64,000 nt of DNA, from the NCBI GenBank assembly GCA_039028615.1, contig JBCCHT010000004.1, positions 256,001 through 320,000 on the forward strand, given 5' to 3'. Below are positions 47,772 to 53,085 of the stretch, in pieces. Below the pieces are notes generated by a model. It was not told the origin of the DNA and ran no database searches. It worked only from the letters and a program-made list of their open reading frames with translations. The position numbers and the translations under genes were made by a program. The DNA comes from Myxococcota bacterium (GTDB lineage Bacteria; Myxococcota_A; Polyangia; Nannocystales; Nannocystaceae). The number at the start of each line of letters is the position of its first letter. Position 1 is the first letter of the stretch.

Positions 47772-47813
47772 GCGCTCCACCGGGGTCCGGCTGCGGTCGG
47801 GCCCGCGGTTTCG

Positions 47814-48947
47814 TCAGCACTCGGTGGCACCGCGGGACCGCAGCAGCGCCGCGACTTCGTCCCGACCCCCGAGTTCGGCCATGAACAGCGCGGTCCGACC
47901 GTCGGGCGCGGCGCTGTCGACCGGGACCTGTTCCTCGTCGAGCAAGCGCCGAACATCGTCGACAAAGCCGCGGTAGGCGGCCCACAGCAGCGAGGACGTG
48001 CGCGGGTGGAGGTCGGTCCGACGCCGCGCTCGCTCGCGCCCCTCGGGGAGCAGGCGCTCCGCCTCGCGGCGTTGCTCGGCATCGACGTGCTCGAGTAGCA
48101 ACTCGACGATTCGCTCGTAGCCTTCGCGAGCCGCGACCTCGATGGGGCTTTGGCCGCGGCGATCGACGACGGAAGCGTCGCAGCCCCGGGCCAGGAGGAT
48201 CTCGACGATCGGGACGGACTCGATCGCCACCGCTTCGTGCAGCGGAGTGCGATCGTGAATGCCGAGACCATTGATGCCCGCTCCGTTGTCGAGCAACAGA
48301 CAGACGATGTCCGCATGGCCGAAGCGGCACGCGGTGTGGAGCGGAGCCCCGTCCTTGTCGGAGTAGAAAAGCCGGACGCCCGTCGTCAGCAGCAACTCGA
48401 TGGTCTCGGTGGAACCGCTCGGCACCGAGGAGTTCAGCAGATGAGGATTGACGAGGATCCCCGCGCCCTTGTCGAGCAGCGCGCGAACCTCTTCCGTGCA
48501 CCCTCTCTGCGCTGCGTCGAAGAGCGCGGCCAAGTGTTTTTCGCGAAAGGCTCGACCGCGCGTGATGCCCCGGTAGCGACGCATCTCGGCCACGAGTTCG
48601 GGAGTACAGCTCGGCAAGTCGACCCCGAGCAGGTGGTGCTCCACGCGGCGACAGGTCCACGACGGAGTTCGCTCGGACGTGGTGGCCAGCACCCAACCGT
48701 CGCGATGCCAGCTCTCCATGAGGCCCCGACAGACACCGCGCGCTTGTTCGGTCGTGGACCGAATGTCGTCGTAATCGTCATACGCCGTGGGGTCGCCGAG
48801 ATTCAGCCCCGAGATGTCACCGCTGCCCTGCCGGATGAGACTGCCCCCGAGGCAAAGCACTCGGTAGTGCACCGCGTCGCCGTGCTCGCGCAGCCATAGC
48901 CAGTGGCCTTCGAGCGTTTCGTCATCCGGCGGCACGCTGATGCCCAC
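47814..48947 (-). CDS. Ankyrin-repeat protein with an unknown (WGR-like?) N-terminal domain, copy 1
   Basis: About 7 ankyrin repeats (PLHTACRFGH, TPLHEAV, SPIEVAAREG, LLWAAYRG, TALFMA). Confidence 0.88.
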   Translation of the reverse strand: MGISVPPDDETLEGHWLWLREHGDAVHYRVLCLGGSLIRQGSGDISGLNLGDPTAYDDYDDIRSTTEQARGVCRGLMESWHRDGWVLATTSERTPSWTCRRVEHHLLGVDLPSCTPELVAEMRRYRGITRGRAFREKHLAALFDAAQRGCTEEVRALLDKGAGILVNPHLLNSSVPSGSTETIELLLTTGVRLFYSDKDGAPLHTACRFGHADIVCLLLDNGAGINGLGIHDRTPLHEAVAIESVPIVEILLARGCDASVVDRRGQSPIEVAAREGYERIVELLLEHVDAEQRREAERLLPEGRERARRRTDLHPRTSSLLWAAYRGFVDDVRRLLDEEQVPVDSAAPDGRTALFMAELGGRDEVAALLRSRGATEC

Positions 48948-48953
48948 GCGACG

Positions 48954-48963
48954 ATGGTACCGT
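48954..48963. promoter_or_regulatory. Overlapping bidirectional -10 boxes, module 1
   Basis: ATGGTACCGT: TACCAT on - (6 nt before GTG 48947) and TACCGT on + (9 nt before GTG 48973). Confidence 0.55.
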
Positions 48964-48972
48964 CATCGGGTC

Positions 48973-49386
48973 GTGTCCGCCGATCCGATGAGCGCTCTCG
49001 AGATTCGGACACGCAAAGGGTGGCAGATTCCCACGCTTCGCTTCTATCGCGAGTCGGGGGTGAGAGACATCGACCTGGAACGATACTCGGCGCTCCACCT
49101 GCTCGGCGCCTTCGACTACCGGATCGACCCCCGCGACCTCCCCGAGCCCATCGTCGACACGCCACGAGGAAGGCCGACCGACTGCTCGAAGAAGCTCTAC
49201 GAGATGACGGCCGAGTACGCGGGGCCAATCAGCTGGCTCACGGTAGAGGAGCTGTTGCTGCACGACTGGGAGCCCGCGCTGGATCACCCCAACGGGCCCG
49301 CCGATTGGCTGCTGCCCATGCTCGACACGCTCTTTGCCCTGGGTGCACCGAGGGACCACCGCTTGGTGTTCTGGCTGGGATGGTGA
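48973..49386 (+). CDS. Small conserved hypothetical protein, copy 1
   Basis: PIVDTPRGRPTDC, ISWLTVEELLLHDWE, RLVFW; homologous to the 50568 gene; GTG start chosen by alignment (ATG 48988 is an alternative). Confidence 0.8.
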   Translation: MSADPMSALEIRTRKGWQIPTLRFYRESGVRDIDLERYSALHLLGAFDYRIDPRDLPEPIVDTPRGRPTDCSKKLYEMTAEYAGPISWLTVEELLLHDWEPALDHPNGPADWLLPMLDTLFALGAPRDHRLVFWLGW

Positions 49387-49400
49387 GGACGCAACCCGGC

Positions 49401-50537
49401 TCAGGGCTCGACCGCACCTCGGGCTCGTAGCAGCGCCTCGAGCTCTTCGTGTTCCCCCATCACCGCCATGTACAGGGCGTTGCGCCCGTCGGGGGCGGCG
49501 GTATTGACCGGCACCCCCTCCTCGTCGAGCAAGCGCAGCACGGAATCGGTGAAGCCCCGGTACGCGGCCCAGAGCAGGGGGCCGGTGTAGGGGTGCATCT
49601 GCGCACGCCGCAGGGCCCGGGCTCGGCCCTCGTCCCGGGACGCCAGGGCCTGCTGGTACTGCGAAGGGGGCACCTCGGACGCGAGGACGTCGAAGATTTC
49701 GTCGAGGCCCTCGCGCGCCGCCAGCTCGATCGGGCTGACGCCGTTGGCATCCCGGGGATCGGTCTTGCAGCCGTGCCGTACCAGGATGCGCACCACCCGT
49801 GTCGCACCGACCGCGACCGCCTGGTGCAGCGGGGTCCGCCGAAGCCCGTCGGTTCGCTCGGTCGATGACCCATGGTCGAGCAATAGCGACACGAGCGTCG
49901 GGCGATCGAGACGACACGCCAGCGCGAGGGGCCCGTCTTCATGCTCCCACTCTTCAATGGGCCCTTGTCGGTCGAAGAGCAGCGCGGCGATGTCGACGTC
50001 ACCGCGTTGCACGGCCGTCGTCACGTGACGCTCCCAGACGTCGCCCGCCTCCATGCGCTCCAACACCAGCTGGATCTCGTCGAGCGTGCCCGTGCGCACC
50101 GCAGCATCGAGTTCGTCCCGCCGCTGTTCACACTCGTACTCGGCACGCTGGGCAACCTGATGTCCATGCATCCGAGCGATGAAGGACGGCGAGCAGCCCT
50201 CGATGCCGATACCGAGCAAGTCGTTGTCCAGCGTGTACGACGACATCCACTCCGTCTTCTCGGTGTAGGTCGCCAAGACCCATCCGTCGCGCTGCCACCC
50301 GTCCATCACGGCTCGACAATCGCGTCGCGCGGCCTGGGGGTTGGAGTGGGTCTGCCAGGGTCCGCTCAGCGGGGGCAGCTCGTCCCAGTCGTCCAGCTCG
50401 GATGCCGGTCCATCGCCCTGCTGCACGCGCGCATCCTCGAGACGAATCGACCGGTATCGCACTGCGTGGTCCTGCACACCCAACCACAACCACTGCCCGG
50501 CGAGGGTCTCGTCGTTGGGCGGCATCCAGGACCCCAC
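49401..50537 (-). CDS. Ankyrin-repeat protein with an unknown (WGR-like?) N-terminal domain, copy 2
   Basis: MGSWMPPNDETLAGQWLWL aligns with MGISVPPDDETLEGHWLWL; TPLHQAV, SPIELAAREG, LLWAAYRGF, AAPDGRNAL. Confidence 0.88.
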   Translation of the reverse strand: MGSWMPPNDETLAGQWLWLGVQDHAVRYRSIRLEDARVQQGDGPASELDDWDELPPLSGPWQTHSNPQAARRDCRAVMDGWQRDGWVLATYTEKTEWMSSYTLDNDLLGIGIEGCSPSFIARMHGHQVAQRAEYECEQRRDELDAAVRTGTLDEIQLVLERMEAGDVWERHVTTAVQRGDVDIAALLFDRQGPIEEWEHEDGPLALACRLDRPTLVSLLLDHGSSTERTDGLRRTPLHQAVAVGATRVVRILVRHGCKTDPRDANGVSPIELAAREGLDEIFDVLASEVPPSQYQQALASRDEGRARALRRAQMHPYTGPLLWAAYRGFTDSVLRLLDEEGVPVNTAAPDGRNALYMAVMGEHEELEALLRARGAVEP

Positions 50538-50544
50538 ATCCCCC

Positions 50545-50554
50545 ATGGTAACTT
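50545..50554. promoter_or_regulatory. Overlapping bidirectional -10 boxes, module 2
   Basis: ATGGTAACTT: TACCAT on - (7 nt before GTG 50537) and TAACTT on + (13 nt before ATG 50568). Confidence 0.5.
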
Positions 50555-50567
50555 TGCGTCTTCGCTC

Positions 50568-50981
50568 ATGACCATCGACTTCGGCAGCGAGCTCGAGCAC
50601 CGTACCCCGCAGGGGTGGGTCGTCCCGACGAAGCGATACTGGGAGGAGATCGGGTTCGAGTTCTGGCCCGACTTCGACGAAAACTACCACGCGCTGTACG
50701 TGCTCACGGCCGATGCGTATCGGCTGCGCGGGGCAAAGCTGCCGGCCCCCATCGTCGATGCGCCGCGTGGCCGAGCCCACGACTGCCCGGCCGAGCTCAT
50801 CGACCGGGGCCACTCCGCCATCAGCTGGCTGACGGTCGAGGAACTGTTGCTCTACGACTGGGAGTACGCGTTGCAGCACCGCTCCGAACCCGCGGGCTAT
50901 TGGCTGGTGCCGTTGCTCGACTCGCTGTACCAACTACGACCGCCGAGCGACTATCGAATCTCGTTTTGGGCGATGGTGTAA
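50568..50981 (+). CDS. Small conserved hypothetical protein, copy 2
   Basis: PIVDAPRGRAHDC, HSAISWLTVEELLLYDWE, RISFW. Confidence 0.8.
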   Translation: MTIDFGSELEHRTPQGWVVPTKRYWEEIGFEFWPDFDENYHALYVLTADAYRLRGAKLPAPIVDAPRGRAHDCPAELIDRGHSAISWLTVEELLLYDWEYALQHRSEPAGYWLVPLLDSLYQLRPPSDYRISFWAMV

Positions 50982-51147
50982 CGACGCGGTCGGGCACATT
51001 TCGCGAGAGGCCCGTAATCGCGGGAAATCTCTTACATACGCGGTGAACTGCGGTCATAGGCTGTCATGGTGACTCGGCTGGCTGCCCCCTAGGTTGGGTT
51101 CGCAGCCCCGGCATTTCGCGGGGCCCCCCAACACGGAGATCAGCCCA

Positions 51148-53085
51148 ATGCCTCAGATCCATGACCTTCGCGGCCTTTTCCTCTCTCGCGCCTGGACCCT
51201 CGCCGAACACCGTCCCGCTTCCATCGCGGCGTCACGGGCTCGGCTCACCGTAGCGGGTGCGCTAGGCCTGCTGCTCGCGGGATGCCCGAGCGACGACGGC
51301 ATGGTCATTGCCGACGCAGGGGGTGAGACCGAGGGCAGTGGCGAGACCGACGACGCCGTGACGGACGACGGCATGGCCGAGGCCGGCACCCCGATGGCGA
51401 CCACCGACGCCGCCACCGGGACCGGTGGTGAAGAGGAGACCGAGGGCGTCGACGAGTCGAGCGGCGACGAGTCCACCACCGATGACGTGGACCCGAGCTG
51501 CGGCGACGGCATTCTCGACGATGGCGAAGAGTGCGACGACCACGGCGAGTCCGCGCTGTGCAACGCCGACTGCACCGTGTCCTCCTGCGGTGACGGGACG
51601 GTCAACATCCTCGCCGGGGAAGAGTGCGACGACGAGGGTGAGTCCTCGGGCTGCAACGACGACTGCACCGAGGCGATGTGCGGCGACGGGATCCTCAACG
51701 CCAGCGCGGGCGAAGACTGCGATGGCGATGGCGAGTCCGCCGAGTGCAACGCCGACTGCACCCCGACTCAGTGTGGCGACGGCATCATCAACGAGACGGC
51801 CGGGGAAGAGTGCGACGACAGCAACATGGAGGATCTCGACTTCTGCTCGAGCACCTGCCTGGCCGCACCGTCCCCCGTGCTCGATGCCGACCACGTGTTC
51901 GACACCGACACGGGCGAGCTCGATGGCGTGCCTCAGTTCTGGGATGCGGCCACCAGCACCTGGTTCCTCAACGGGCTCGAGATCCAGGAGACCGGCGTGC
52001 TCACCGTGGTCGGTAGCAACTCGCTGACCATCGTCGCCGACGGACCCGTGTTGGTCGCGGGCACCATCGACGGCTCGGGCCAGGACGGAGGCACCCCCAA
52101 TATCGACTCACCCAACTGCGATACCGCTGGGCTCGGCGGCATCCCGGGGCCCGGTGGATTCGCGGGTGGCGACGGAGCGGGTAACGGCGGCACCGGTACG
52201 GAGGATGGCGCGCCGGGACAGGGACCCGGCATGTCGCCCGCACAGGGCGGGGTCGCTTCGACGGTCACCGAATCTCTTTTCGCGGGCGCGGGTGGAGGCG
52301 GCGGCGGCCACCTCGTCGCCGGTTCACCCGGCTCGGCAGATCCAGCCACGGGCGCGCAGGCGGGCGCCGGAGGCGAGGCACACATGAGCGTGCCTCCGCT
52401 CATCGGCGGAGGCGGAGGCGGAGGCGGTTCGGTCGAAAAGGACGCATCGATTGGCGAAGGGACGCTCAGCAGCCTCGACGATGATGGCGCAGGCGGGGGC
52501 GGAGGCGGAGGTGCCATCGCGATCGACTCCGCCGTGGCCATCGTGGTGACGGGGACCATCAACGTCTCGGGGGGCGCCGGGGGCAACAACGATGGGGCCG
52601 GCTGTGCCGATCAAGGTCTCGGGGGCGGCGGCGCGGGGGGAGCGATCCACCTGCTCTCTCCGTCGACGGATATCGGCGGAGCAACCCTCGACGTCAGCGG
52701 TGGCTTGGGTGGCGTGACCGACAGTGCGGACCCCGCCGCCGTGGTCTTGAACGGCGGAGACGGATCCGAAGGGCGCATCGTCGCGCCGCCCACCGGCTAT
52801 GGCATGTGCACGCCGGGTGGTGGCCCGACCGAGTGCATCATGGGAGAGGGCTGCCTGACGGACGACGTCGACACCCCGACCTTCGGCATCTGCGTCACCA
52901 TCGGATGTGCCGTCGATGCCGACTGCCCTGCCGCCCCGGGCTCGGGGACCGCGGCTGCGCTGTGCGTCGACATCACGGGAGACGGCGTCGCCGAGGAATG
53001 CGTGCTCGACTGTTCGGCGGGCGAAACCTGCCCCGCCGGGATGGACTGCTTCAACGACAACATCTGCGTGCACACCCTCGAGTAG
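51148..53085 (+). CDS. Myxobacterial Cys-rich repeat (DUF4215-like) lipoprotein with Gly-rich region
   Basis: Lipobox LAGC; four CGDG...GEECD repeats; GGGGGG tracts; Cys-rich C-terminus. Confidence 0.85.
   Translation: MPQIHDLRGLFLSRAWTLAEHRPASIAASRARLTVAGALGLLLAGCPSDDGMVIADAGGETEGSGETDDAVTDDGMAEAGTPMATTDAATGTGGEEETEGVDESSGDESTTDDVDPSCGDGILDDGEECDDHGESALCNADCTVSSCGDGTVNILAGEECDDEGESSGCNDDCTEAMCGDGILNASAGEDCDGDGESAECNADCTPTQCGDGIINETAGEECDDSNMEDLDFCSSTCLAAPSPVLDADHVFDTDTGELDGVPQFWDAATSTWFLNGLEIQETGVLTVVGSNSLTIVADGPVLVAGTIDGSGQDGGTPNIDSPNCDTAGLGGIPGPGGFAGGDGAGNGGTGTEDGAPGQGPGMSPAQGGVASTVTESLFAGAGGGGGGHLVAGSPGSADPATGAQAGAGGEAHMSVPPLIGGGGGGGGSVEKDASIGEGTLSSLDDDGAGGGGGGGAIAIDSAVAIVVTGTINVSGGAGGNNDGAGCADQGLGGGGAGGAIHLLSPSTDIGGATLDVSGGLGGVTDSADPAAVVLNGGDGSEGRIVAPPTGYGMCTPGGGPTECIMGEGCLTDDVDTPTFGICVTIGCAVDADCPAAPGSGTAAALCVDITGDGVAEECVLDCSAGETCPAGMDCFNDNICVHTLE

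Follow-up and report, generated by a model that had tools for sequence, protein, structure and literature searches.

Why are an ankyrin-repeat gene and a small gene related to a phage family kept head to head, twice in tandem, in the chromosome of a Nannocystaceae bacterium? The question is raised by positions 47814-50981 of the window, by which we mean the whole 64,000-nt contig piece analysed here, taken from a genome of 12.3 Mb (G000; C numbers denote contigs). The two tandem units of this locus are referred to as window1 and window2, those of two other genomes of the same genus as G001a, G001b and G002. Taken together, the evidence describes a real two-gene unit with a phage-derived partner, restricted to one genus and undescribed within the literature searched, in which a widespread phage family of unknown function has probably entered the chromosome, been altered there and stayed with a single ankyrin partner over repeated rounds of duplication.

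A two-gene unit copied as a whole

A preliminary description, made from the sequence alone, had recognised an ankyrin gene on the minus strand facing a small gene on the plus strand, twice in succession. Both units are indeed present, as four intact frames whose start codons were set by alignment:

47814-48947, minus strand: ank1, 377 amino acids from a GTG start; WGR-like N-terminal domain, seven ankyrin repeats and a helical insert (fold by homology to the ank2 model)
48948-48972, unstranded: spacer 1, 25 bp; predicted bidirectional promoter
48973-49386, plus strand: small1, 137 amino acids from a GTG, or 132 from the ATG at 48988; diverged member of a phage family related to PHROG 10141
49401-50537, minus strand: ank2, 378 amino acids from a GTG, with the ATG at 50546 as the alternative; same architecture as ank1
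about 50250-50513, minus strand: WGR-like domain of ank2 (residues ~9-96), its ankyrin repeats being placed at residues ~136-290 and 315-375 by the AlphaFold2 model
50538-50567, unstranded: spacer 2, 30 bp; predicted bidirectional promoter
50568-50981, plus strand: small2, 137 amino acids from an ATG; PHROG 10141-related, with a predicted alpha/beta fold and strands at both termini

The ankyrin proteins are identical at 152 of 385 positions (39%, BLASTP E value 9e-86) and the small proteins at 66 of 132 (50%, E 3e-37), and every motif quoted for either family in the preliminary description was recovered. GC contents of 0.82-0.87 at third and 0.44-0.49 at second codon positions fit true coding. 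A contig from the likely source run, a marine metagenome and the only run found to contain this DNA, covers the entire stretch with zero differences, although it is not independent of the assembly.

A profile of the ankyrin N-terminal domain found six places in 3 of 73 genomes of the family, these being three of the six genomes of one genus, and a profile of the small gene found seven places in the same three genomes. Besides the tandem, the window's own genome has one more unit, on C44, and C42 bears a small gene by itself. All six ankyrin genes stand head to head with a small gene, and six of the seven small genes have an ankyrin neighbour, so that the linkage proposed from the window alone holds in other genomes as well. 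A wider small-protein profile brought the total to 4 of 73 genomes, with a small gene that stands alone in G083, a genome of another genus; this chromosomal family member (C473, L089:10502-11071) lies behind a methyltransferase gene, with the ankyrin gene absent upstream. On C42, a 32-codon frame that begins like the N-terminus of the small protein (L002:8231-8329) overlaps the beginning of the solitary gene and was probably left behind by a partial tandem duplication.

A sample of 400 other genomes of the phylum, with only nine candidates scored in each, did not yield the unit. Of 12 stretches picked out by a pattern scan across all GTDB representatives, 3 were confirmed, and these were the same loci of G001 and G002. 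A protein search with the N-terminal domain returned five proteins, all of them ankyrin proteins of 374-381 amino acids. A weak match of this domain on C7 of the own genome was discarded as noise, and 21 metagenome loci were set aside because they matched the repeat region only.

The six units occupy five loci, each with different neighbours. In the trees of both proteins, window1 and window2 (with G001a) form one group and G001b and G002 form another, and this agreement indicates that the unit was copied whole and that the pair in the window is a tandem duplication. Hence the unit has been duplicated and relocated as a whole and the linkage of its genes is not a matter of local chance, the six units being related copies and not independent events. 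The closest cross-species pair, G001b and G002, has identities of 59% and 54%, beside 73-76% for the neighbouring DUF1015 protein in other species pairs. Gene order around DUF1015 differs in G001 and G002, which defeats an empty-site comparison.

The tandem is bracketed by a 10-bp direct repeat (47793-47802 and 50986-50995). A mobile element with target-site duplication was considered and rejected: 13 of 1495 random pairs reach at least 10 bp, and the other loci are without the repeat. A prophage origin of the window was likewise rejected, as no phage genes were seen and the GC content falls only to 0.665-0.675 from about 0.69-0.70. Directly after the unit in G002, a gene (C7, L077:9726-10709) matches phrog_24943, labelled DNA polymerase, with an E value of 1.8e-27, and is the second gene of phage type there.

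A small protein probably remodelled from a phage family

For the small protein, the preliminary description had pointed to uncharacterised phage-associated proteins, and this likeness can now be given a family. A word-based search with small2 returned only itself, whereas a profile of the six small copies reached 552 representative proteins, the best one outside the clade with an E value of 4e-11. Direct matches to phrog_10141 are weak (4 of 6 copies, best E 6e-4). An alignment of 117 rows comprised seven genome copies and 110 of the 150 hits listed, and omitted own duplicates, the repeat artefacts P0011 and P0038, one fragment, and the longest or partial hits; 107 of these rows match phrog_10141, a family of unknown function, and the homology extends over the whole length. 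The nearest Atlas clusters (score 0.93-0.94) have a viral share of 62-90%, and a scan with the alignment confirmed 187 viral stretches that carry the family, unlike a scan with a single-protein query, which found nothing. On this profile evidence the small protein is a diverged and remodelled offshoot of the widespread phage family PHROG 10141, exemplified by Enterobacter phage EcP1 gp28, Paenibacillus phage Tripp gp38 and Caulobacter phage CcrColossus gp397.

In contrast to the phage members of PHROG 10141, the small genes are chromosomal, and the window and its sister loci carry cellular genes. Three phage members that were inspected lie among small hypothetical genes or beside a repressor/antirepressor region, and the family member P0021 matches 53 phage records, the annotated ones among the 40 listed being all hypothetical. 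None of the best 80 of the 187 viral loci, with flanks of up to 3 kb, carries an ankyrin, N-domain or WGR gene. Since the phage relatives are without an ankyrin neighbour, the pairing likely arose in the bacterium.

The remodelling has spared the core of the family (E, W, R-G-x-P-x-D, W, E, DW and R), with E10, W17, R67, G68, W87, E92 and R130 retained in all 11 aligned sequences of the module type. On the contrary, the family signature of D-I-H, R-N-Y-x-L-F, H-x-x-S-W and a terminal F-D is absent from the module type: H6 and H83 are found in 0 of 11 sequences compared with 61 and 65 of the 106 others, F135 and D136 at the C-terminus in 0 of 11 compared with 97 and 73 of 106, and R38 in 3 of 11 compared with 93 of 106. 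Other residues were gained, namely Y44 (8/11 vs 2/106), P59 (11/11 vs 12/106) and D118 (11/11 vs 14/106), with P61 as a further newly fixed position. The residues lost are those that most resemble a putative active or ligand site. Five closer relatives of the small protein come from other assemblies (P0008-P0010, P0012 and P0013), two of them on contigs of 45 and 64 kb, and many phage members measure 200-260 amino acids compared with about 140 here, the DW motif being followed in them by a long insertion.

The structural model of small2 is confident, with a predicted local distance difference test (pLDDT) value of 89.3. In BFVD it is best matched by a phage protein that is itself uncharacterised (E 2.8e-3, template-modelling (TM) score 0.54), and viral clusters are matched with TM scores of 0.61-0.63. 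Pfam holds no common family for the small proteins. Among solved structures, PDB sequence searches gave nothing, Foldseek gave nothing against PDB at an E value of 0.001, and the best VIA match reached a Z score of 3.4, although the lack of a solved relative does not show a new fold. The weak VIA neighbours include DMP12 (Z 2.8, root-mean-square deviation (rmsd) 3.8 over 95 aligned residues), the immunity protein CdiI E479 (Z 2.7) and YfbM (Z 2.1); for these and the Imm40 and HycH-like alpha-beta folds, Z scores of 2.1-2.8 and TM scores of 0.35-0.52 are too weak to assign either fold or function.

A putative ankyrin receptor behind a shared spacer

Membership of the ankyrin proteins in the repeat family is clear, as Pfam Ank_2 scores them at 100 and 72.7 bits against a cut-off of 27.3 and VIA aligns 157 residues with DARPins (Z about 20, rmsd 1.9). 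Built from a six-row alignment, the AlphaFold2 model of ank2 (pLDDT 88.5, predicted TM score 0.68) begins with the N-terminal domain, which a long linker helix joins to five repeats; a helical hairpin separates these from the last two. The roughly seven repeats with a helical insert that had been read from the letters therefore correspond to seven helix pairs and a two-helix insert at residues 291-312, ending at the motif HP. No membrane or signal segment was found, the highest 19-residue hydropathy being 1.53.

The binding face of the repeats, whose positions we take to be those of the DARPin consensus plus position 10, is unevenly conserved. Pairwise identity among the six copies is 0.09, 0.30 and 0.13 on the faces of repeats 3, 4 and 5, compared with 0.37-0.61 in the framework, and rises to 0.82 in repeat 6 and 0.57 in repeat 7, the near-invariant face of repeat 6 reading H/D-P-x-T...W..Y/F-R. 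The suggestion that diverged but intact copies reflect selection for diversified variants is partly supported by the face of repeats 3-5, which is hypervariable, but the rates of the genes as wholes do not show positive selection. The ratio of nonsynonymous to synonymous substitution rates is about 0.53 for both the ankyrin and the small tandem pair, with synonymous sites near saturation, and 0.26 and 0.40 in the G001b/G002 comparison; whole-gene selection is purifying and evolution is fast.

The N-terminal domain had been guessed to be WGR-like, and the order of its elements in the ank2 model agrees (strands 11-22, 25-34, 37-44 and 61-63, helix 67-83, strand 87-95). Fold searches with the whole model were swamped by the repeats and are uninformative on this domain. 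In the Atlas's own model of the ankyrin protein (pLDDT 0.63), clusters of WGR domains are the top two structural matches, with TM scores of 0.68 and 0.69 by target and 0.45 and 0.46 by query, which is below the Atlas naming bar. Shared with WGR-domain proteins (PF05406) are the succession of four strands, helix and strand and a G-W/G-Y turn after the helix. The differences are a long insertion between strands 3 and 4, a net charge that is acidic in five of the six copies and neutral in one, and the absence of the W-G-R motif, in whose place there is only an invariant glycine, G43 in strand 3. None of five N-terminal domains matched PF05406 at E values up to 10, Pfam gave no hit on this domain, and hhalign against 20 WGR domains from relatives gave a marginal similarity (probability 3.6% over 31 columns; score 18.1, compared with at most 16.2 in 60 shuffles). 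Hence the domain is predicted from models to have a WGR-like fold, and not to be a member of the WGR family.

The start codons of the two genes are 25, 30, 38, 25, 30 and 25 bp apart in the six units. In spacer 1, the minus strand carries TACCAT at 48954-48959, 6 nt before the ank1 start, and the plus strand TG-N-TACCGT with its hexamer at 48958-48963, 9 nt before the small1 start. Likewise, spacer 2 has TACCAT on the minus strand (50545-50550), at 7 nt from the ank2 GTG, and TG-N-TAACTT on the plus strand, with its hexamer at 50549-50554, 13 nt before the small2 ATG. TACCAT at 6 or 7 nt from the ankyrin start recurs in four of six units, as does the extended -10 element TG-N-TANNNT on the small-gene strand, the TA being common to both strands in three; both hexamers are found in window1, window2 and G001a, and the C44 unit departs from leaderless spacing. 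As a control, TANNNT was counted upstream of coding-like starts throughout the genome; it peaks at a distance of 6-7 nt (547 and 563 occurrences compared with 115-240 at 3-5 and 11-17 nt), and control hexamers ending in G or C show codon periodicity only. The two-sided pattern has 61 matches in the genome, 17 with coding-like frames on both sides, making 13 distinct pairs, 11 of which are other genes.

The layout predicts transcription starts 23 bp apart, and prokaryotic bidirectional promoters of this spacing, with overlapping -10 hexamers that share TA, form a described class (10.1101/2020.01.31.928960; PMC12825309). The spacer studied here would differ from that class in driving near-leaderless mRNAs of two protein genes. 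On these motifs it is likely a bidirectional leaderless promoter, from which joint expression is predicted.

Candidate roles of the pair

The reading we favour, at a probability of roughly one in three, is that a co-expressed ankyrin receptor and a domesticated phage protein, its partner or bait, serve in the surveillance of phage or other foreign proteins. Near-leaderless divergent transcripts from the overlapping promoter would provide joint expression. The near-invariant face of repeat 6 would hold a constant ligand, most simply the small protein, whose newly fixed Y44, P59, P61 and D118 would fit such constant binding, and the hypervariable face of repeats 3-5 may sample a changing ligand. 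The WGR-like domain might act as the output, by contact with nucleic acid or protein, because a catalytic domain is absent. Furthermore, the ankyrin gene was never found without the small gene and the small gene does occur alone, which would fit a small protein that restrains or primes its ankyrin partner.

Several observations weigh against this surveillance role. PADLOC 2.0 and the NCBIfam defence models gave generic ankyrin matches only, and none for the small proteins. The likeness to PDC-M72A of PADLOC and to MzaA of the MZA system lies in the ankyrin repeats (E 1e-11 to 1e-20); only these match, at 43 bits against an NCBIfam cut-off of 800, and the other domains and partner genes of those systems are absent. 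Domain searches recognised no enzymatic effector or toxin domain, and among the neighbours of the units, which are kinases, DUF1015, YggS/Maf, glyoxalase II and TetR genes, neither an integrase nor a defence cluster was seen. Nucleic-acid binding is a property of WGR domains, but the net charge of both proteins, acidic or neutral, makes DNA binding by the WGR-like domain doubtful. Ankyrin paralogues usually vary in their binding faces, and the conservation figures come from only six related ankyrin sequences. The tight spacer is this organism's normal grammar and no oddity, since the same layout is found at other divergent pairs across the genome, and overlapping promoters could hold genes together without shared function. 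As for the phage ancestry, annotation gives the family no function of its own, the 11 sequences of the module type group together, apart from 58 others, with a support of 92, not starred, and the direction from phage to bacterium is inferred from abundance and not from a rooted comparison. Finally, the range is narrow (three genomes of one genus) and there is no functional signal, both of which limit the present weight of the finding. Titles and abstract openings in the literature yielded nothing on a WGR domain with ankyrin repeats in myxobacteria, on WGR in anti-phage defence, or on an ankyrin-small pair.

Some of these observations would suit a cognate binding pair with an internal role, such as an adaptor and a regulator in a serine/threonine-kinase network, for which the phage-like gene was raw material. 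Serine/threonine kinase genes lie within a few kb at the loci of five of the six modules (window, C44, G001a, G001b and G002), and the lack of both defence context and transmembrane or signal segments would agree. Such kinases are, however, very abundant in these genomes. The unit's patchy presence (three of the genus's six genomes), its rapid divergence and its recurrent relocation are also more in keeping with conflict genes, leaving an internal role somewhat unlikely.

Two small linked genes, duplicated with divergence, also suggest a toxin-antitoxin or orphan-immunity pair in which one product, harmful by itself, would be neutralised by the other and each copy would diverge to keep its own specificity. 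A partner found alone while the other never is, as expected of an antidote, is what the small gene presents at G000:C42 and in G083, and its model faintly echoes the DNA mimic DMP12 and the immunity proteins CdiI E479 and Imm40 (TM 0.35 for the last). Those echoes are nevertheless below any meaningful level, no domain can be recognised as a toxin, the acidity of the small protein does not exceed that of the phage members, and the layout is divergent instead of operonic, so that we consider such a pair unlikely. It is equally unlikely that the genes are independent and travel together only by a promoter that overlaps the neighbour's 5′ end: the same layout does join 11 other gene pairs and at C42 and in G083 the small gene does persist on its own, but a promoter needs only the first few codons of its neighbour, whereas both frames are full length in all six units at five loci with synonymous sites near saturation, and no ankyrin copy has lost or exchanged its partner.

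Within the surveillance role, a more specific version, which we hold to be improbable, is a guard-and-decoy immune module: a captured phage accessory protein, stripped of its putative active residues, would stand beside a diversifying ankyrin receptor that senses the homologue brought in by a phage, or any factor that targets this homologue, with the WGR-like domain passing the signal on. If true, it would also open a first way to learn what a widespread phage family does; and if the unit is defensive at all, it would represent a minimal receptor-plus-bait design absent from the defence libraries tested. With six natural pairs, specificity between cognate and non-cognate partners can be tested directly, and the ankyrin partner could reveal what the phage family binds.

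Directly after the tandem, positions 51094-53085 probably encode a lipoprotein; it has three cysteine-rich repeats of 93 bp each (DUF4215-like) and its tail is rich in glycine.

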